DNA of 57,039 bases. It comes from a virus (Duplodnaviria > Caudoviricetes). The stretch's first letter is position 1, and each line of letters begins with the position of its first letter. The DNA lies in IMG/VR virus record IMGVR_UViG_3300037882_003134, positions 1-57,039 of that record, one strand, 5' to 3'. Below are positions 19,983-34,717 of this stretch, one piece after another. The translations under genes and the position numbers were made by a program. The notes under the pieces were generated by a model. That model had not been told where the DNA came from. It saw nothing but the letters and a program-made list of their open reading frames with translations, and did no database searches.

Positions 19983-21829
19983 TAGGCATGATTCGTGGTC
20001 AGATTGAGCTGGCGCATGACCATCGCTCCGAGAGCATCGACGATTTCACGAGACGAGACACCGATCATTCCACCATGCACGTTCACCTCAACGTGAACCT
20101 GTTTGCCCATCATTCCACGGGATTCCTGTGCGGTATGAACGCGAGACCCTTGCGGAGCGGAGATGATTTCTGGACCGTGCTCGCCTACACGCGTGAATGG
20201 CTCGGCAATAACGCCTCCGCTCGATCGGCCTCGTGAGGAACGACTGCCAGTCGCAGCTGCAGCCACGAACTCCGCAATTTCCTTTGCCTTCTCCCACGCG
20301 GTCTGAAGTGACTCCAGAAGCCATCCGAAGAATCCTGAAAATGCCCCCTTGATCGCATTCAAAGCGCTATCTGCGCTGTTTTTGATCACGTCGAGGAATG
20401 ACTGCCACGACAGTTGAATTTCGATGGACATCGAGTCGAAAATGTTTTTGACCGTATCGAAGAACGACTGGTAATACAGGGTGACGATCTCTACCCACAT
20501 TTTCGTGTTCTCGACCAATGTCTCCGCAAAGAGCTGCGCCTTCCATTTCACTGCCTCCCAGTGCTGGGCGAGTGTGATGAGCAGGGCGATCAGTCCTACG
20601 ATGGCGAGTGCCAATGGACCACCGAGTGCGAGCAGTGGGGCGAGCACCCCTGCAGCGATGCCGATTGCCGCCATAGCGACCTTTACGCTCGCCAGTACGC
20701 TTACGATGGTTGTGAACATCACGAGCGCGCTACCTGCCACAGTGAGGAGTATCCCGAGTGCCGCTACAACGAGAGCAATGCTCTGCGAAATCTTCGGATG
20801 CGCTTCAGCCCATTCGGCCATTTTGCTGATCACCGGCGTGATCGTAAGCAGAATCTTGTTTATCGCGGGTAGGAGCAGGCTAGCGATGACAATTGCCAGG
20901 TCGTTCACCGTGTTTTTGAAGACGATCCACTGGCTTTCTGTTGTTGCAAAGCGCTTGGCGGCTTCTTCTGCAAGGGCGGTGTTCTCTCGGAATGCATCGG
21001 TCGAACTTCGAACGGCGTCTTCCAGTACCCCACCAGCTCCAGCGACCGACAGGAAAGCTCGCTGCAAGCGCGAATCAGCGAAGCCAAGTTCCGTGAGCAC
21101 CTGCCCTGCTTCATTGCCCGAGTCTGCAAGTCGGCGGACGAAACCTTCAAACTCACCGATTCCGCGTTTGCCTTGGTTATTCAGATCCAAAAGGATCTTT
21201 TGCACCGCCGTACCACCAGTTTCCGCCTGAATTCCTGCTGACGAGAACGCAGCGGCGATTCCGAAGATCTCTGCGGTTGTGAGTCCGGCGATCTTTCCTG
21301 CACCTGCGATACGGAGCGCGAATTCCGTAATCTCGCTTTCTGTTGTTGCGAAGTTGTTGCCCAACTCCACGACAGACGACCCCATTCGGTCAATATTCGA
21401 GATCGGCTCCTGTGTGATGTTCGAAATACGAGCGAATGCCGTTGCAGCGCTTTCTTCCGTCAGATCAGTCGTGACAGACAGCTCCGCAATCGACTTCGTG
21501 AAATTCGTGAGGTTCTCGACCCCACGCACACCGAGCTGACCGGCAAGTTCGCCAATGCGGTTTAACTGATTGACATTGACTGGAACCTGCTTTGAGAGGT
21601 TTCGGAAGTTCCTTTCCAGAGCCGCAAACTCTGCTTCAGATGCATCTACTGTCTTCCGAACGCCAGCGAAGGAGCTTTCGAAGGCAATGGCGCTGTTTAC
21701 CGCGACCCCGAGTGAAGCGGTAACGGCCAATCCAACCGCGGTCGCAGCCAAGCCGATCTTATTGAAGTGAGCACTCGCATTGTCGATGACAGTGACGATG
21801 TACTCGATGTTTTTCGTAACATCAGCCAT
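19982..21829 (-). CDS. Tape measure protein (TP901-like core)
   Basis: FESSFAGVRKT, GQLG, GNNFATTE; TM segment; W/F periodic repeats. Confidence 0.93.
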   Translation of the reverse strand: MADVTKNIEYIVTVIDNASAHFNKIGLAATAVGLAVTASLGVAVNSAIAFESSFAGVRKTVDASEAEFAALERNFRNLSKQVPVNVNQLNRIGELAGQLGVRGVENLTNFTKSIAELSVTTDLTEESAATAFARISNITQEPISNIDRMGSSVVELGNNFATTESEITEFALRIAGAGKIAGLTTAEIFGIAAAFSSAGIQAETGGTAVQKILLDLNNQGKRGIGEFEGFVRRLADSGNEAGQVLTELGFADSRLQRAFLSVAGAGGVLEDAVRSSTDAFRENTALAEEAAKRFATTESQWIVFKNTVNDLAIVIASLLLPAINKILLTITPVISKMAEWAEAHPKISQSIALVVAALGILLTVAGSALVMFTTIVSVLASVKVAMAAIGIAAGVLAPLLALGGPLALAIVGLIALLITLAQHWEAVKWKAQLFAETLVENTKMWVEIVTLYYQSFFDTVKNIFDSMSIEIQLSWQSFLDVIKNSADSALNAIKGAFSGFFGWLLESLQTAWEKAKEIAEFVAAAATGSRSSRGRSSGGVIAEPFTRVGEHGPEIISAPQGSRVHTAQESRGMMGKQVHVEVNVHGGMIGVSSREIVDALGAMVMRQLNLTTNHA

Positions 21830-22049
21830 CCTTGGGGCGGGAAGAGCGGGACTTCTTGTCCCTCGTCACCATTATCGCATAATGCGCCGCGACTGTCTTA
21901 CGCGGAAGCGCATCGATCTCCCAAGGCGTGCAGTTGAGCTCCTTCGCCAGATCGTGCCGCATCATTGTTTGTCTGGCAGCCCGTTCGGCTTCGGGGCAAT
22001 CGACGGGGATGCCGTAGATCAAGCAGCCGATTGCCCGTTCGATTTTCCC
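21822..22049 (-). CDS. Tail assembly chaperone -1 frameshift extension (gpGT-like)
   Basis: Reached via G_GGA_AAA at 22043-22049; LAKEL..TPWEIDALP motif. Confidence 0.8.
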   Translation of the reverse strand, partial: GKIERAIGCLIYGIPVDCPEAERAARQTMMRHDLAKELNCTPWEIDALPRKTVAAHYAIMVTRDKKSRSSRPKDG

Positions 22050-22483
22050 AACTCCTCCTCGTCCTTCGCTTCGATCTTCTTCACTTCCTCCTGAATAGCG
22101 GAGTAATCGCGCCGTGAAAGCAATCCAAGGCGTTTCTCGATGTCCGAATCGTCATCGTCGATGGACAACACCATGCCGGCGATCTTCGTGCGTTCTGCAG
22201 CGTGCGTATCCGCGACGCTGATTTCCGCATTGACGTGCTTCATGATGATTTCCTTTCGGGCTTCGTCCATGAGCAGCTTTCGCTGTCCCTCCTCAGCATT
22301 CTGAATGGCAAACGCGCGATCTGGTCCCAACTCCTCCGCAACGCGTGTGATGTCCACGTTGGCGATCTTCATGTCGAACTTGATGTTCTTGGAGATCATC
22401 TCCTGGAATCGCTCGAAAACGATCTGCGGGACGAAATCGTGGAGTTCTACGACCGATCCTGATTGAGGGAGCGTGAGCTTCAT
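22019..22483 (-). CDS. Tail assembly chaperone (gpG-like)
   Basis: Between tail tube and tape measure, ends at slippery site. Confidence 0.8.
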   Translation of the reverse strand: MKLTLPQSGSVVELHDFVPQIVFERFQEMISKNIKFDMKIANVDITRVAEELGPDRAFAIQNAEEGQRKLLMDEARKEIIMKHVNAEISVADTHAAERTKIAGMVLSIDDDDSDIEKRLGLLSRRDYSAIQEEVKKIEAKDEEELGKSNGQSAA

Positions 22484-22532
22484 ACAACTGGGGGAAGATG
22501 CAGCAGCACGCTACGACGACTTGCCAGAGAAA

Positions 22533-26830: not shown

Positions 26831-28189
26831 TTAGGACGCAGTACCTGTCTTCAGGATCGACATTGCTTCGTCATCGATCGTGTCGGAATCGAAGAACTCC
26901 GTGACGCGCAGCGCGTAGCTGTTCGTCTCGTTCAAGTTCACCGAATCGACCGTACCTTGACTCTGCAGCTCGATGCGGTAGCCCGGACGTACGCCACAGA
27001 TGTGGTAGCCGAGGTTACCGAACAGACCGAACTTCGTCTCTGCGGCAGGAGCCTGCTCCATCGAGACCACACGCTTCAATTCGAAGCCGTGGACACGCTT
27101 GTCAGACTTCAGCTCTTGGACGTTCGCCCAGTGGTAGTTGTCGTTGCCCTTGGACTTCGCGAGCACGTTGATCACCTTGCGGGGCATCCAGAAGCGAGCT
27201 TCGCCACCGATCATGCCAGAGCCCTTGATGTCCTCGTCAGGGAGGTACTGCTCATCGAGCTCGTTGATGAGATCGGCCATGTGATCGAACGTGAGGTCGG
27301 TGATCGCTGACTCACCTGCCGCCATATCCACGACGTTTGCGGTCTGGGCGAGGATATTTGCGAACACGATCGAGTCCTCCTTCTTCGCCAATTCGATCGT
27401 CGCGAAGTTGATCAGCGTCTGGACGAGCGCTGGATCGGCAGTCTCCAAGAGTTCTACCGAGAAGGGCTTGCTCAGCACGTTGATCTTCTTCGTTGTGAGA
27501 GTGAACTGCGCGAACACCGGCTGGCTCGACGTAGCGCCCGTGGCTTCTGCAGTCTGCTCTGCCGTGAAGGTGGACGTGAGCTTCGGCAGGCGAAGAATCT
27601 CGCGTTCCATCGTGATCTGCGTGCAGTACTTGCGAGCCTGCGACACACGAGCGACGTTGTCGTACAGCATCGTGCTGAAGATTTCACCGCCCAGGTAACC
27701 GCCCGTGGTATCCGTCGTGAGGCTCATGGCACGCTCTGCGCGGCCGGTCTCCTTCAGGTACTGACGTTCGGCTTCGTAGGCCTTTTCCACGCCTCCAGCT
27801 TCGCCCTTCCCTACGGAAGCGCGACTGACGGCACGGATCACCTTCGCGGCCTCGTGGAGATCGCGCTGGCGGTGCTTCTGCTGTTCATAGGCGGATTCTG
27901 CGGTTTCCTGCACCAGTGCTCGGGACTGCCCGGCGTTGAGGTTGTACTTCCGCTCGATTTCGCTGCCGACTGTCTCGGCGATCTTCTGTGCATCCTGTGA
28001 TGCACCATCGACGATCATGCGAACCTGATCGTCAGAGAGCTGTACCATCGGCTTGTCTTCGACGGCTACGCCCATGTGTTCCTGCATGTAGGATCGCAGG
28101 ATTTCAGCCTGTTCGGCCTTCTCCTTGCCCTGCATGCGATTGTGGAGGTCAGCAAGCTGCTGTTCCTCCTTTGTGGGAGTGGGACTCAT
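26831..28189 (-). CDS. HK97-fold major capsid protein with delta domain
   Basis: TAATG coupling; RAMS..T.TTGGYL, SVELL, FGNL motifs. Confidence 0.9.
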   Translation of the reverse strand: MSPTPTKEEQQLADLHNRMQGKEKAEQAEILRSYMQEHMGVAVEDKPMVQLSDDQVRMIVDGASQDAQKIAETVGSEIERKYNLNAGQSRALVQETAESAYEQQKHRQRDLHEAAKVIRAVSRASVGKGEAGGVEKAYEAERQYLKETGRAERAMSLTTDTTGGYLGGEIFSTMLYDNVARVSQARKYCTQITMEREILRLPKLTSTFTAEQTAEATGATSSQPVFAQFTLTTKKINVLSKPFSVELLETADPALVQTLINFATIELAKKEDSIVFANILAQTANVVDMAAGESAITDLTFDHMADLINELDEQYLPDEDIKGSGMIGGEARFWMPRKVINVLAKSKGNDNYHWANVQELKSDKRVHGFELKRVVSMEQAPAAETKFGLFGNLGYHICGVRPGYRIELQSQGTVDSVNLNETNSYALRVTEFFDSDTIDDEAMSILKTGTAS

Positions 28190-30534
28190 TAGAGAGATTG
28201 GGAAAGAATCGTCCGCTCGAACTGTTGTGCGGCGGACTTTGCGACTTCCCCGAGATCCTTTGCAGGAACCCCGCGTCGTGAGGCTTCCACGGACGCTTCT
28301 ACACACGCCTTGCGGATGGTTTCACCCAGCCGCGGAAGCGCATCGATAGGGATTTGAACGAAGGCTTTTCGTTCGGGTGCAGGGGCTTCCTGCACCGGAG
28401 GATTTGGGGCGGGTTCGGGCTCCTCCACAACCGGCGTTTCCGGTTCCTCTGGTGTTTCTACTGGCGTTTCCGGCGTCTCGGGCTCTTCGGGCGTCTTCGC
28501 CTCTTCCTCGATTATCTCCTCCATCTGCTCGAACGCTTCCTTCTCATCGGCCGGCTGTTCGATGCCGCGAGCCTTGAAGAACTTCTCCATGGCGCGGCTG
28601 GCTACTTTGTTTACCGGCTGCTTTTGCTCGAAATACCTGCGGTACTTTTCCGATTCGGAAGGTGTGGGTGGCATGGTGCTCGCAAGTATACACCCGTTCG
28701 CATTTGTCTCATTCTCAATTTGGCGACGTGGGCGATAGTTACTTCCTTGGAGCTGAATGCTTGTGATCAGATCCTTCTGCTCTTCCACCTTCTTGACCGC
28801 TTCACGCAGTGCATCGCTGATACTGAGGCCGTCCGAATCGTGAATGTTTCGGGCGAAGCTGGCGAGTTCGTACACGTGAGCCCCGGAGTAACCCTTCGTC
28901 TTTTTCACAGCCTCCTGCACGTCCTCATCGGAAACGCCATCGATCCATTTACGCAGCATCGCAGCGCGTTTCTCGTCAGTCGGCAGATTGAAATTGAGCA
29001 CGTCATGGAAGCGACCGGGACGATCGATCAATGCTTCCGGCAAACGCTCGGGGAAGTTCGTGGTCATGATTGTGACAACCCCGGAACTCCGTGCGATGCC
29101 GTCCATTTCCGTCTTTAAGAGATCGATATTTCCAGCAACCCAGTTGTCGATGTCCTCAAAGAACAATACGGAAGGTGCAATCTCTCTCGCGAGTTCGAAA
29201 GCTTGCTCGAATCCGCCACCGCGGTAGAAGTCCCTTGTCGATACCCAAACAAAGCTGCAGTCCTGTAGTGTGTTTCGGATAATACGACCCGATAGCGTCT
29301 TGCCCGTGCCAGGAGGACCGAGCATCAGCACGCCGCGGTTCGGCGTTGATTTTCCCTTGGCGTTGAGCCGCTCAACGACCCGCGAAAGTGCCTTTGCATT
29401 CTTCTCTTCGAGGAAGCAATCGTCCCAGGTCTCGTCGGTCGTCCGAATGAATTCACCTGAAAGGGCGAACGCTTCGCCTTTCAGCGGATTCTGCTCCCTC
29501 GCGAACTTCCATGCCTCATCAACCACACGTCGATTGAATTCCTTGGCCTCCCGGTGAGTAAAGAAGTTGACCTGCAACCCTCCCCACACAGGAGTTACCG
29601 AGTAGGCGAAATTGCCTTCGCTGCTTCGGTAGAAAGCGATCCCATCAACAAGGAAGTCCTCGCTCTGCCGTGAGTTGAGTTGAATGACGTTGTGAACGGG
29701 CGGGAGTTCAGTCCCCTGCCACGTCAGGTTCCGTACTTCGGCCAGGGTGCTACCCATCAAAGCGTGTCGGAGCCCGGACAGCACTCCACCGATCCGGAAT
29801 GAGGGGATGCGGAAGGTATTCTGGAATATCTCCTTCACTTCGCAGTCGATATGCTTCGCCACCCAATCGTACTGAAGCTCTGCGGGGCTGATGGATTCAT
29901 GTGTTACGTCGAAAGCTCGGCTCAATGACCGATTCCAGCGAATCGGCTCAGATTCATCCGTAAAGCTCTCGATGCGCGAGGCAAGCTCGCGGTATGTCTC
30001 AATCTCGTCTTCCCGGCCGAGCTTTCTAGCTCGCTGCACCAGCGCGTTGCTGTTGCTTGGGATTGTGACGATCGATACTTCGAGCAGTCGTTGCTTGCGA
30101 TACACACGCACCGGCACTCTTGCGCCGGCAGCGTCTTCCTCCTCCATGTCTTCCCAATCGAGTGGTTCGAAGCCGACCGAAACGGCATTGATGAAACCGC
30201 CGCGTGCGAGCTCCCAAACGGTGTCAGCGAGTGGGAAGACTCCCTCTTCAGGGAACTCGATTGTGAGATAGGTTTGCTGGTTGTGTACACGAAGAGTGTC
30301 CGGCAAACCCTTTGCTACTGGCAGGCCATTGCTTCCCGTTCGCCCCCTGTCATCGTGAGCGAGTGGAATGACAGGATTCTTGCGGAACGTCTCAAAGTCC
30401 CAGCCGGCTTGATCGATTCTCGTTCCGTAGCTGTCGATGTCGAACGTCGAAATGATGACGGTCAGACGCCGATTCGCAATGTCGATGTCTCTTGCCTGTT
30501 CGGCCGTGGCTTGCCGGATCTCCTTTTCTGGCAT
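28189..30534 (-). CDS. HK97 prohead protease fused to AAA+ ATPase plus acidic scaffold-like tail (781 aa)
   Basis: DSYG, NPVIPLAHD, AVSVGF, LLEVSIVTIPSN; GPPGTGKT, FFEDID, TTNFPERLPEALIDRPGRF. Confidence 0.9.
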   Translation of the reverse strand: MPEKEIRQATAEQARDIDIANRRLTVIISTFDIDSYGTRIDQAGWDFETFRKNPVIPLAHDDRGRTGSNGLPVAKGLPDTLRVHNQQTYLTIEFPEEGVFPLADTVWELARGGFINAVSVGFEPLDWEDMEEEDAAGARVPVRVYRKQRLLEVSIVTIPSNSNALVQRARKLGREDEIETYRELASRIESFTDESEPIRWNRSLSRAFDVTHESISPAELQYDWVAKHIDCEVKEIFQNTFRIPSFRIGGVLSGLRHALMGSTLAEVRNLTWQGTELPPVHNVIQLNSRQSEDFLVDGIAFYRSSEGNFAYSVTPVWGGLQVNFFTHREAKEFNRRVVDEAWKFAREQNPLKGEAFALSGEFIRTTDETWDDCFLEEKNAKALSRVVERLNAKGKSTPNRGVLMLGPPGTGKTLSGRIIRNTLQDCSFVWVSTRDFYRGGGFEQAFELAREIAPSVLFFEDIDNWVAGNIDLLKTEMDGIARSSGVVTIMTTNFPERLPEALIDRPGRFHDVLNFNLPTDEKRAAMLRKWIDGVSDEDVQEAVKKTKGYSGAHVYELASFARNIHDSDGLSISDALREAVKKVEEQKDLITSIQLQGSNYRPRRQIENETNANGCILASTMPPTPSESEKYRRYFEQKQPVNKVASRAMEKFFKARGIEQPADEKEAFEQMEEIIEEEAKTPEEPETPETPVETPEEPETPVVEEPEPAPNPPVQEAPAPERKAFVQIPIDALPRLGETIRKACVEASVEASRRGVPAKDLGEVAKSAAQQFERTILSQSL

Positions 30535-31310
30535 TACTGGGAGGGGAAGTGGGACAGAACGCGATCGCGTTGACCGCGGAATGCACGGCGCAAGTGTATC
30601 ACGAAGTCCCGTTCGAGCGCACCATGTGCTCTGAGGAACACTCGACCGAGTTGGTGTTTTCTGTCGAAGGTAAGCCCTGCACCGACAACTGCGCATCTGC
30701 AGTTTGCTCGTTCTGACATTGGCAAAGTCGAGTCGCCGGGGAACATTCCCGAACTTCCGCCCACCATGAACGGCTGGTGAATTCCGACCACCTGCCCGTC
30801 GGCCGCAGCGTGTGAAGCCCGCTCCCGGCCATCGATCACCGTAGACCATTCTTTGTTCTGGTATCCCTCTCGCCGAAGAGTCTCTGTCGATCCGTCGTTG
30901 ATCACATCCGTCAGCTCCGTGCGAGCAATCAGCTTGTTTCGTACCTTTTCATGTTGTCCGAATAGCTTATCGATGCGCTTCGAGAGTTGCTGAATCCCCT
31001 CTCCCTGCTCGATCGCAGCGGCGAGCTCTACCTGCAGAGCCTCCTTCGTTGTGCCGATTGCGATAGCCGCGTGATCAAAAGACTTCTGCTCAAGCGCAAT
31101 TCGCACGGCTTGGGTGAAGAGATCATCTTCCGAGAACTCCCCGTCGCCCTGCATCAAGCCGATCCCGATACCACGCTTGAACCCACGAAAGAGGAACGGC
31201 TGGTAGATGGCCTGCCACCGAGTCCGCTCTGCACCCTCGTCAAAGATGTCCCCGATGCCGGGGAGATTTGTTTGTCGTTTCTGTGTGGGTGTTGCTACGC
31301 GGCTAAATTT
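30534..31310 (-). CDS. MuF/SPP1 gp7-like head morphogenesis protein (probably entered by -1 frameshift from portal; alternative start 31157/31154)
   Basis: IARTE, KEW, R.SH..ADGQ, PGD, NCRC; frame open and protein-like up to the slippery site. Confidence 0.85.
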   Translation of the reverse strand, partial: KFSRVATPTQKRQTNLPGIGDIFDEGAERTRWQAIYQPFLFRGFKRGIGIGLMQGDGEFSEDDLFTQAVRIALEQKSFDHAAIAIGTTKEALQVELAAAIEQGEGIQQLSKRIDKLFGQHEKVRNKLIARTELTDVINDGSTETLRREGYQNKEWSTVIDGRERASHAAADGQVVGIHQPFMVGGSSGMFPGDSTLPMSERANCRCAVVGAGLTFDRKHQLGRVFLRAHGALERDFVIHLRRAFRGQRDRVLSHFPSQ

Positions 31311-32557
31311 GCCGGAGGTTCGGGAGAAGCACCGGCAGGCACTTTGTTGAAGTTCACGTATGGGATGTCGGTCACTCCGGGGAGATCCAGTGGTTCGAGT
31401 CCCATCATCTGGCGGGCTTCATCGGGCAGCAGCGAGGCGTTTTCCATCAGCGTCGCGATCGTCTGCCGTTTCTCCTCAGTGTTCTCCGGCACCGGATCGG
31501 GGAAGTTGAACCGCATGCCCTCGTGACCGGGGAACTGTGGCAGGTAGTCGTTATTCAGGGTATCCGTGATCATTTCTAATAGCGGCAGGACAGTGAACCG
31601 TTGGAACACGTAGATTGCCGCATCTGCGTTCGCCCTTGTCTGCGATTCTGTCCGGCCGAGCATTTCGAGACCGATGCGCATGTTTGCAAGGATCTCGTCG
31701 CGGTTCATCTTCTTGCTCTCGGCGTACTGCATGTCTGCGTTTGATTCCTGCACCTTCGTGAACGTAAGCCCCTTGGGAAGCATTGCTGTCTTCCCTTTCT
31801 GGCCAGAGTATTTATGCATCCATTCGGACAGAATCTTTTGTCGCTCTTCGGGAGTGAGGTTCTGCTCGGTACTCAGCACGCCGGATGGGATGGCGTTGTT
31901 CTCCATCCGATCGAGGTTCATCTGATCCGCTTTCTTGTGCGCATCGAGAGCGTACCGTGCAGACTTCACCGGCGAGTGCCCGCGGAACATATCCATTGGG
32001 TTGGGCATCTTGAAGTGAACGACATCTTCCGGTGCAAGTCGGAGGCGATGTTCGATCGTTTGGTACTCGTAGTGATCGATGCTGTTATCCGCACCGAAGT
32101 GCAATGTCATGCTGCCAGGTAACAGCGGGTGAATGATCGTCGGCGCGCCGTTTAGCTTCCGCCGGCCATCGAGCATCCAGAACGCTTCGCCGTTCAGTTC
32201 ATGGTGCAGGCCGAGCAGGTGGAAGAGCTGGCGCTGCGTGAGCGGGCTCTTGCCCGTCTTCCCAGGCATTGGGTTGTGCAGTGTTTCGAGAGACTCATGC
32301 TTCTCCACCCGATCCCAATCGTCGCCCTTCTTCTCTTCGAGGAAGAACGGAGTACGGGAGACTTCAAAGCAGATAACGTCGATACCCGCGTGGAACCACG
32401 GGTTTTCACCGTAGAATTCGAGCGAGGCTTCGGGTTGGAAGTGATGCGGCTGTCCGGCGTACCGGAACATGGCGCTCAGGTCGGTACCAACAAGACGTTC
32501 CTCCCGCCCGAGGAAAGCATCTGCTGCGTTGCGGAGGCGCGTAAGAATCGACGGCAC
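31295..32557 (-). CDS. HK97-family portal protein
   Basis: LNGEAFW, VVHFK.PNP..GHSP, N.A.PSGVL, DMQY.E. Confidence 0.93.
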   Translation of the reverse strand: MPSILTRLRNAADAFLGREERLVGTDLSAMFRYAGQPHHFQPEASLEFYGENPWFHAGIDVICFEVSRTPFFLEEKKGDDWDRVEKHESLETLHNPMPGKTGKSPLTQRQLFHLLGLHHELNGEAFWMLDGRRKLNGAPTIIHPLLPGSMTLHFGADNSIDHYEYQTIEHRLRLAPEDVVHFKMPNPMDMFRGHSPVKSARYALDAHKKADQMNLDRMENNAIPSGVLSTEQNLTPEERQKILSEWMHKYSGQKGKTAMLPKGLTFTKVQESNADMQYAESKKMNRDEILANMRIGLEMLGRTESQTRANADAAIYVFQRFTVLPLLEMITDTLNNDYLPQFPGHEGMRFNFPDPVPENTEEKRQTIATLMENASLLPDEARQMMGLEPLDLPGVTDIPYVNFNKVPAGASPEPPANLAA

Positions 32558-32591
32558 GGGGACAGTGTACAACTATCCCCAAAGAAGCGCA

Positions 32592-33230
32592 TTAGGTTTT
32601 GGGTAGCGTCAAATATGCGTAGATGAAGCTGGCAATGACACTGGCAGCGATACCCAAAAGGAAGCCGACCAAGAGCACCTTCCACTGACCACGCAGGCTT
32701 TGCGCGTACCGAAGATCCTCGCGCATCCCTTCAAGAGTAGCGCTAAGGGTCGCAATGCCTTCGGCAAGATGCTCGTTGGTTACCTGCGCTTGCTGGGGCG
32801 TCTCCTCACGTGGAAGCCTTTGACGAATTTCGTCGGCTTCCATAACACGGATCGCCTCGCCTCGCCGAACAAACGCTCCAGCGTCCGAGATCGCAATCTC
32901 TCCCGCCACAGGCTTGAAGACAACAACACCGACTTGCTGCCCTTGGTATGTGACCGGATGAAGGCGAGTTTCTGGCATCGGGCGGATACGGCCACCAAGC
33001 TGATCGACTAGGTGCCCCAGCCGACGAACATCCGTCCCGACCACAACGTCAGGCTCCCGCACTCCAACGAGCAAGACACCACCCTGCGTATTCCCGAATG
33101 CAGAAGCGATCTTCGCAAGATCGAGGATCGTGCGCATGTTCTCTTTGAACTCGACCTGCTGCGTTTCGCCGCCAGCAATAAGCCGTGCAACGTCGTCGGG
33201 CGTCACGTTCTCAAAAAGTCGGTCGATCAA
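32592..33230 (-). CDS. Schlafen/AlbA_2-domain protein with C-terminal coiled coil and TM helix (moron)
   Basis: GE...VEFKE, ASAFGNTQGGVLLVGV, FVRRG; TTG start after GGGGA. Confidence 0.8.
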   Translation of the reverse strand: MIDRLFENVTPDDVARLIAGGETQQVEFKENMRTILDLAKIASAFGNTQGGVLLVGVREPDVVVGTDVRRLGHLVDQLGGRIRPMPETRLHPVTYQGQQVGVVVFKPVAGEIAISDAGAFVRRGEAIRVMEADEIRQRLPREETPQQAQVTNEHLAEGIATLSATLEGMREDLRYAQSLRGQWKVLLVGFLLGIAASVIASFIYAYLTLPKT

Positions 33231-33241
33231 GTTTCTGTCCC

Positions 33242-34717
33242 CTATGCAATCAGTAGTTCGCCAATATCCCCGCTCTTCGCGGCCATCAACATCAAAGCTG
33301 TCGCGTCTGGCGCGTCGTCCTTCGCACCCGGTTCGTCCGGATGGTGGACGCTCAGGTATTCGCCGTCTCCCTTGTACTCGCGCACGAGCTGCGTCATCTG
33401 CTCTTCGAACTCTGCGGCCAGCGGATGATCTGCGGGATAGCTGAACCGCAACGGATCGCCAGCATCGCGGAAGATCGCCTCTTCGAACAGCAAGTACATC
33501 TCGTTCTTGCTTTGAAGGGTGAATTTTACATGACTGGTGGTATCGACTGGAAGGCGCGTTTGGCGCTCCAGCGTTTCCATCGGCATGTCGCCCTGTCCCG
33601 TGGAGTCGCCGCGTACGCCCAGAATCCGCTGCATGTACGTGAATTCGCCCGAAGAATCTTTGCGCGGTTCGTTGAGCCAAGCCGTCAGCAGCTCGATCTG
33701 CTCCTCGTAGGCCACGCTCGGCAGCTTCAGCATGTCCACGATGTCGTTCTGATCGTTGCCCACGATGGCCCACGTCGCATCACTGACCCGTCCCCAGTCC
33801 ACACCGAGGAACAGCTTACCAGCGGGGGCAGGCGTGCTCCTGCCGCACGAAAGCAGGCGCTCGCGTGCGACGAAGTTGCCTTCCTCGATCAGATCATCCA
33901 GGTAGAAGTTGACCCGTATTTCAGGATTCTCGCGGCCTTTCTCCTTCAGCAGGCGGGCGAACGTCTTCTCGTAATCCAGGTGCTTGGCGTCCCCGGTCTC
34001 TTCGTATTTCTTTCGCCGATCCGCGATCACCGCGTCCACATCGACCACGATCGACTTGCTGTTCGGGAAATCCCCGTCACATCCGCGTTTGAAGTCGCAC
34101 GTCCGCCGCGCACCAACCCCGATCATCCACCGCACGCCGTTGGTGGACGCGAGCATCGGATCAAGCTGATCCGCCCGCTTCTGGTCATCGGCCTTGTGGG
34201 CTTCCTCGACGATGAGGACGTTGAGTGTCTTCGATTCGTTTGTCGTCGTAGGTGCGAGAGAGAAACGGTAGACCTCCGCAGAGAGTTGATCGAGCCGATA
34301 CGCGCGAACCGTGTGCGCGTTGAACTCCCGATCCTCGACCTGCCACGAGTCCCGCATGGTCCCGATCGACTTCTTGATGCGGTCTACGTCCGTCTTCGCC
34401 TGCTCGCCCTTGGGTGAGGCGATGCCGGCCATGAGCGGATCACCGACGAGTAAGCGGTAGAAGATAATCAGAAAACGCAGCAGCAGCGTGATCGTTTCCG
34501 TCTTCCCAGCTTGGCGGGAAATCTTGATGTAGATGTCGATCGGCTCGACGAAGAGCGAGTAGAGGCACCAGTACGCGATCTTCACCTGATACGCGTACAG
34601 CTCGAATCCGAACAGTTTGCAGAATCCGACAAAGGCTTTAAGCGTCCGCTTCAGCGTCGCTTTCTTTTGTGCCGGCGTCTGGTTCCGGACCGTCACTGTC
34701 GAGCAGCATACCAGCAA
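33242..34717 (-). CDS. terL: Terminase large subunit (start uncertain)
   Basis: SRQAGKT, LIVEEAH, LGVDWG..D, DSTG.G, HHP....DDAPDA. Confidence 0.92.
   Translation of the reverse strand: MLVCCSTVTVRNQTPAQKKATLKRTLKAFVGFCKLFGFELYAYQVKIAYWCLYSLFVEPIDIYIKISRQAGKTETITLLLRFLIIFYRLLVGDPLMAGIASPKGEQAKTDVDRIKKSIGTMRDSWQVEDREFNAHTVRAYRLDQLSAEVYRFSLAPTTTNESKTLNVLIVEEAHKADDQKRADQLDPMLASTNGVRWMIGVGARRTCDFKRGCDGDFPNSKSIVVDVDAVIADRRKKYEETGDAKHLDYEKTFARLLKEKGRENPEIRVNFYLDDLIEEGNFVARERLLSCGRSTPAPAGKLFLGVDWGRVSDATWAIVGNDQNDIVDMLKLPSVAYEEQIELLTAWLNEPRKDSSGEFTYMQRILGVRGDSTGQGDMPMETLERQTRLPVDTTSHVKFTLQSKNEMYLLFEEAIFRDAGDPLRFSYPADHPLAAEFEEQMTQLVREYKGDGEYLSVHHPDEPGAKDDAPDATALMLMAAKSGDIGELLIA

Follow-up and report, generated by a model that had tools for sequence, protein, structure and literature searches.

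In the tailed-phage record IMGVR_UViG_3300037882_003134 (Caudoviricetes; 57,039 bases, about 55% G+C, a metagenome-type virus record analysed whole and called the window below), the gene for the portal protein on the minus strand is followed, in the −1 frame, by a MuF/gp7-like reading frame whose conserved N-terminal part carries no start codon. The reading favoured here, with a probability of roughly 0.75, is that a conserved, low-efficiency programmed −1 frameshift near the end of the portal gene would yield a minor portal–MuF fusion of 679 residues. Such recoding had been proposed in an earlier note on this DNA, and the proposal is supported by the comparative evidence presented below: purifying selection on the startless stretch, a conserved N-terminus, the distribution of slippery heptamers among related junctions, and relatives in which the two proteins are fused.

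The portal gene occupies 31295–32572 of the minus strand, with 425 codons from a TTG at 32572 to the stop TAG at 31297–31295. Its product matches the portal family PF04860 over the full length of the profile (E 7e-56, profile positions 3–321 of 321), as well as the portal families phrog_2662 and phrog_12. The 3′ end reads ...CCG GCA AAT TTA GCC GCG TAG and contains the heptamer A_AAT_TTA (31304–31310, minus strand) in the X_XXY_YYZ phase of the portal frame, 13 nucleotides (nt) before the stop, with AAU (Asn422) in the P-site and UUA (Leu423) in the A-site. Relative to the portal, the −1 frame has no stop codon from 31418 until a TAA at 30536–30534 and contains the Phage_Mu_F domain PF04233 at 30687–31037, corresponding to residues 128–244 of a 294-codon open frame (63.1 bits against a gathering score of 29.6, E 5e-17). 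The MuF/gp7-like part, from the slip site to its stop, spans 30534–31310, and the predicted trans-frame product joins portal residues 1–423 to 256 further residues. The TAG at 31297–31295 and the −1 offset between the halves mean that portal and MuF do not form one uninterrupted frame in the window. All this agrees with the earlier description of the portal end, the phase of the heptamer and the MuF frame as the −1 frame.

No ATG, GTG or TTG occurs in the MuF frame from 31418 to 31157, a run of 87 startless codons, 51 of them after the heptamer, where the earlier note had counted about 50. The only near-cognate start after the portal stop is an ATC at +41, which is not conserved. After the slip site, the −1 frame first encodes a C/A-rich linker that runs across the portal stop and is predicted to be disordered (S-R-V-A-T-P-T-Q-K-R-Q-T-N-L-P-G, 31257–31303), and then the startless part of the conserved MuF N-terminus, a long helix (DIFDE...PFLFRGFKRG, 31158–31256). 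The first canonical starts in this frame, TTG 31157 and ATG 31154 (31154–31159), lie at the end of that predicted N-terminal helix and are where gene callers begin a product of 206 residues. In-phase slippery heptamers were found at 19 of the 10760 codon positions in the 28 long open reading frames (ORFs) of the window, with a single in-phase AAATTTA, the one at the portal end.

Whether the startless stretch is translated was studied by an alignment of the window's MuF frame with 35 homologs (36 sequences). The N-terminal consensus of the homologs is P..D...E.........PF...GF..G, and LPGIGDIFDEGAERTRWQAIYQPFLFRGFKRG of the window fits it. With the profile derived from the alignment, the match begins at residue 52 of the open frame (about 31265), 36 codons ahead of TTG 31157. 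The methionine at 31154 is not conserved among the aligned sequences, and gene calls for about 12 of the 36, the window's own included, lack the conserved N-terminus. When the 258 residues encoded from the heptamer onwards were modelled with AlphaFold2, the mean predicted local distance difference test score (pLDDT) was 93.2. In the model, residues 1–18 are unstructured (pLDDT 63–80 over residues 1–20, the linker region), while residues 25–54 form a helix (pLDDT 97–98). As the first start codon falls at residue 52/53, initiation there would delete this helix. A search of the PDB for similar folds with the model gave no match at E ≤ 0.001.

The sequencing runs listed as matching the window each did so over a small share, and no RNA run was among them. 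Two contigs from other sequencing runs cover the junction. A soil-metagenome contig (run X4, record 5; 242 nt, 93% alike) spans 31133–31369, that is 237 nt, with 17 differences and no gaps. Ten of the 17 differences are listed, and nine of these ten fall at 31170–31239; all nine are third-position changes that leave the protein unchanged in the MuF frame but would alter it in either of the other two frames. Among the differences listed, none lies at 31240–31333, which holds the linker, the stop and the heptamer. The run X1 contig covers 31240–31383 with one difference and no gaps. To judge from these substitutions, purifying selection acts on the startless extension through the MuF frame. Family conservation, the structure model and the substitution pattern together identify the startless stretch as real coding sequence. 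The earlier note had reasoned that a lack of coding conservation at 31158–31303 would speak against recoding; the consensus fit and the nine synonymous changes out of nine show the opposite.

Junctions between portal and MuF genes were then compared across relatives. Gathering them from viral, metagenome and genome contigs and removing duplicates left 13 distinct junctions of a close family, with portals 43–55% identical to that of the window. In four of the 13, MuF has its own ATG at the portal stop (ATGA in L003, L004 and L005, TAATG in L011); here the portal tail is acidic, the linker segment is missing, and the last 15 nt before the stop contain no heptamer. In the other nine, no ATG, GTG or TTG is found between the portal stop and the conserved motif, although in L010 a GTG overlaps the portal stop (GTGA). 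Seven of the nine startless junctions have an in-phase heptamer whose first base lies 10 or 13 nt ahead of the portal stop, whereas the four with their own ATG have none (Fisher one-sided p = 0.021). Elsewhere in the portal ORFs of the 13 loci, outside the last 15 nt, such heptamers stood at 11 of 4962 codon positions.

Three heptamer types make up the seven: A_AAT_TTA in the window, L010 and L027, at the same place in each; C_CCT_TTA in L017, L018 and L019; and C_CCA_AAA in L013, to which L012 is nearly identical. The check suggested earlier, for a conserved slippery heptamer and −1 relation in homologous pairs, thus turned out in favour of recoding. In L010, L017 and L027, no more than 19, 16 and 31 nt, respectively, of open −1 frame precede the stop, and the heptamer lies within each of these gaps. 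The MuF frame of L018 contains no ATG, GTG, TTG, CTG, ATT, ATC or ATA from −103 nt to the conserved motif. In addition, a CA-rich segment encoding TQKQ(K/R)R is common to the window, L002, L010, L013, L017–L019 and L027; the ATG-bearing junctions lack it. The portal tree is star-like, with the C_CCT_TTA loci forming one clade, and A_AAT_TTA is kept in three lineages separated by tree paths of 1.07–1.55 changes per column. In this tree, L010 groups with the ATG-bearing L011 (support 83/87). Two DNA pattern scans of viral contigs for further junctions returned known loci or chance matches (L062 unrelated, 11/12 unrelated).

The leucine codon at the slip site is TTA in all seven junctions with a leucine there, L002 included. 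TTA is the rarest leucine codon of the window (22 of 905 leucine codons, 2.4%), and in the portal and MuF genes its share of leucine codons is 1.4–3.2% in six of the seven TTA junctions and 10% in L002. The phage has a single tRNA gene, for tRNA-Arg (TCT) at 1375–1449 on the minus strand, and no tRNA-Leu(UAA). Slow decoding of UUA is plausible as a pause signal in place of RNA structure.

The proposed mechanism is as follows. Most ribosomes would read GCA AAU UUA GCC GCG UAG through to the stop and release the 425-residue portal. In a minority, both tRNAs would slip back together by one base on A_AAU_UUA, so that tRNA-Asn in the P-site would pair with AAA instead of AAU and tRNA-Leu in the A-site with UUU instead of UUA. 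The next codon would be AGC in the MuF frame, so that Leu423 would be joined to Ser-Arg-Val and so on, and a linker of some 16 residues, basic and flexible, would connect portal residues 1–423 to the complete MuF/gp7-like protein. How often ribosomes slip, which is probably seldom but may be made more frequent by slow decoding of the rare UUA, would set the number of MuF-bearing portal subunits, possibly a few per portal ring. Given the topology of portals, a tail on the portal C-terminus would place MuF inside the capsid. The low-frequency covalent tether would have the same effect as the binding of SPP1 gp7 to its portal. The anatomy of the junction, coding selection, conservation of the site across relatives and the fused relatives are shown by the data; that ribosomes slip, how often they do so, what UUA contributes and the stoichiometry are inferred.

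Stimulatory elements were searched for around the site. A hairpin, pseudoknot or Shine–Dalgarno-like element is common at −1 frameshift sites but not obligatory. When the 107 nt from the heptamer onwards were folded for eight junctions, nothing significant emerged (z-scores −1.28 to +0.37), and the consensus fold of the eight, at −0.03 kcal/mol, gave no conserved downstream structure, in line with the earlier remark that no obvious hairpin follows the site. No conserved Shine–Dalgarno-like (GGAGG) element was seen by eye upstream of the heptamers. Regarding the heptamers themselves, C_CCU_UUA and C_CCA_AAA are described as giving more than 0.10% frameshifting in E. coli without stimulators, and UUN and AAN as the more shift-prone A-site codons, in the available text of PMC4066793. 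According to the same text, the U_UUA tetramer shifts at only 1.8–3.6 times background even with a pseudoknot, and A_AAU_UUA stands outside the list of 18 heptamers that Sharma et al. selected by efficiency above 0.10% and under-representation, supplements aside. Transcriptional slippage was ruled out, there being no homopolymer run longer than three at the site.

The folding results, the missing upstream element and the figures for U_UUA and A_AAU_UUA count against a programmed frameshift, and so do several features of the junctions. L002 (the same junction as L008 and L009; 2498–2512) is startless with A_TCT_TTA, on which only the A-site tRNA would re-pair, and L015 (like L014; 2495–2512) is startless with no heptamer, its motif beginning at the portal stop. 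For these two, another route to startless MuF expression must exist, and it could act in the window too. The sample is small, with 13 distinct junctions on a star-like tree. Moreover, the −1 relation alone is what an ancestral ATGA overlap leaves: such an overlap puts the downstream gene in the −1 frame, and therefore the frame relation is no evidence of recoding, whereas the heptamers and the missing starts are.

Another route of this kind would be the production of free MuF by termination–reinitiation or non-canonical initiation just past the portal stop, helped by the unstructured C/A-rich leader, the heptamer being incidental. The four junctions in which MuF is coupled to the portal stop by ATGA or TAATG are in keeping with this, as are the GTG (GTGA, L010) and CTG (CTGA, L019) that overlap the portal stop, and the CA-rich unstructured stretch that follows the stop in all eight aligned junctions; L002 and L015, which lack a canonical heptamer, need a mechanism other than tandem slippage in any case. 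However, the −1 codon overlapping the TAG is GTA in the window, L002, L013, L017 and L018, and the overlapping codon in L027 is ATA. L018 offers neither a canonical nor a near-cognate start over the interval given above, and the ATC codons found elsewhere are scattered rather than standing in one alignment column. Reinitiation also leaves unexplained why in-phase heptamers built on the rare TTA should occur in 7/9 startless junctions and 0/4 of the others. It was judged unlikely, if still the strongest competitor of frameshifting.

Far less probable is the gene-caller model, in which a MuF of 206–207 residues starts at TTG 31157 or ATG 31154 and 31158–31303 is an untranslated spacer. These are the first canonical starts, and the public gene calls for P0001 (206 residues) and its closest relative P0002 (205 residues, 78% identical) begin there, but a spacer would hardly match the family consensus or confine nine of nine changes to synonymous third positions of the MuF frame. 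The model would also remove a helix predicted with a pLDDT of 97–98 and rely on a methionine that is not conserved, and the first start in the other startless relatives is scattered from +50 to +248 nt past the stop. The least probable explanation of all is an assembly or sequencing indel, the real phage having a plain in-frame fusion, or a decaying gene with a dead MuF. In-frame fusions do occur in the family, and the window is a metagenome-type record; an assembly indel is nevertheless unlikely because the X1 and X4 contigs cross the junction without gaps, and a stop with a −1 offset recurs in eight further distinct junctions from independent assemblies. A dead gene is at odds with a MuF frame that is intact and under purifying selection.

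Fused relatives give the proposed frameshift further context. The profile phrog_2662, annotated as portal and 717 positions long, matches both the window's portal (profile positions 58–434) and its MuF frame (559–706). Portal and MuF were found in one open frame in 14 of 60 screened sequences, L007 among them. P0038 and P0039 each carry both Pfam domains, and P0039 (674 residues) is colinear with the window's portal as far as residue 418 and with its MuF frame from residue 22 onwards. In-frame portal–MuF fusions are described in Microbacterium phage subclusters EA3, EA5 and EA8 and cluster EB in the available text of PMC7302621. The earlier statement that such fusions exist is thus borne out by P0038, P0039, L007 and phrog_2662. 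L007 (about 2417–2431) is a 797-codon in-frame fusion with an A10 run in its acidic/lysine linker and a −1 stop three codons after it. The arrangement may be an inverted one, a slip there yielding portal without MuF, perhaps closer to dnaX.

The head genes on the minus strand follow the order small terminase, large terminase, Schlafen/AlbA_2 ORF, portal, MuF, S78 prohead protease–AAA ATPase and HK97-type capsid. The protease is fused to the ATPase in a gene of 781 codons (28189–30534, minus strand; PF04586 and PF00004), whose ATG at 30534 overlaps the MuF stop as TAATG; ordinary coupling is thus present at that junction and not at portal–MuF. This is an unusual head-maturation fusion, with an acidic Pro/Glu-rich tail, and the capsid gene comes after it. 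The Schlafen/AlbA_2 ORF (32595–33773, minus strand; PF04326, E 7.5e-14) separates the portal from the large terminase. As listed, it starts in overlap with the terminase ORF, and the true start is probably further downstream.

Among the tail genes on the same strand, an in-phase G_GGA_AAA (22043–22049) stands nine codons before the stop of a 163-codon ORF (22022–22510). It is followed in the −1 frame by an ORF of 75 codons (21825–22049) that ends at the start of the tape measure gene (19988–21832; phrog_13339, E 1e-77). Neither ORF had a match in PHROG. By its position, the G_GGA_AAA at 22049 is the predicted site of a canonical tail assembly chaperone (G/GT) frameshift.

In a scan of genome contigs, the nearest cellular relatives were prophages in three metagenome-assembled genomes of Planctomycetota, two from Pirellulales and one from Planctomycetaceae; for this reason, the host is probably a planctomycete. 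Of 401 genomes of the host phylum, one had a match at E ≤ 1e-30, and it was already among the known relatives. Of the 781 records that tblastn found among known phages, none reached 60% identity and none extended over 80% or more of the query.

MuF/gp7 proteins are found inside the capsid in few copies, help to start infection and often carry toxin or enzyme cargo, as described in the available text of PMC6316719 and PMC7302621. If the proposed frameshift takes place, it would dose MuF in a simple way, by attaching it to a set proportion of the portal subunits, and phage head and tail morphogenesis would gain a second conserved recoding site. The trimming of MuF genes by gene callers, as in the roughly one third of aligned sequences that lack the conserved N-terminus, would find an explanation too. 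Annotators who meet a startless MuF in the −1 frame of a portal should join the two and not trim MuF to its first ATG. A wider proposal is offered tentatively, since we would lean slightly against it as a whole: portal–MuF −1 frameshifting may be a widespread recoding of tailed phages with a logic like that of G/GT, in a family that moves repeatedly between ATGA-coupled genes, a minority fusion by frameshift and a hard-wired fusion. Here the slip might be tuned by the rare UUA and not by RNA structure, so that the supply of host tRNA-Leu(UAA) would set the number of MuF carriers per capsid.

No report of a portal–MuF frameshift was found in the literature, supplementary tables aside. The first 300,000 characters of the 2016 recoding review PMC5009743 contain none of the terms 'portal', 'MuF', 'head morphogenesis' and 'minor capsid', and the available text of the PRFect article (PMC10885494) mentions MuF solely beside VIP2 fusions. 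The in-frame fusion genes, those of Microbacterium phages and of phrog_2662, are like the window in having the two domains in the same order. The difference is that a hard-wired fusion puts MuF on every portal subunit, whereas the stop and the −1 offset in the window would restrict the fusion to frameshifted ribosomes.

Among classical recoding sites, that of Rous sarcoma virus gag-pol, A_AAU_UUA, is read by eukaryotic ribosomes and depends on downstream structure; its heptamer is identical to that of the window, for which no conserved structure was found. In E. coli dnaX, a −1 slip on A_AAA_AAG with Shine–Dalgarno and hairpin stimulators gives tau and gamma. As proposed here, two products arise there in a set ratio from one gene region, but the dnaX slip shortens the protein and the portal–MuF slip would lengthen it. 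SPP1 offers a parallel to the proposed tether, with gp6 and gp7 belonging to the same families (PF04860 and PF04233) and standing in the same gene order as in the window. Its gp7 is recruited to the procapsid in few copies by binding the portal gp6, and the two frameshifts named are in tail genes, with none described between genes 6 and 7, in the available text of PMC6316719. Unlike the predicted fusion, SPP1 gp7 is separately initiated and binds non-covalently.

The tail assembly chaperones gpG/gpGT, made by a −1 frameshift in lambda and reportedly in most long-tailed phages (work attributed to Xu, Hendrix and Duda, 2004), follow the same logic. There too, an X_XXY_YYZ heptamer lies a few codons before the stop of an upstream morphogenesis gene and gives a minor, C-terminally extended product in a fixed ratio, and in both cases the sites are kept by position and not by sequence. 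The proposed slip differs from G/GT in that the gene pair is portal–MuF and is not upstream of the tape measure gene, and in that the slippery A-site codon is the rare UUA. It differs as well in its downstream frame, a complete protein that in relatives is either separate, through ATGA coupling, or part of a hard-wired fusion. The gene pair and its interchange with coupled and fused forms would set this case apart from G/GT.

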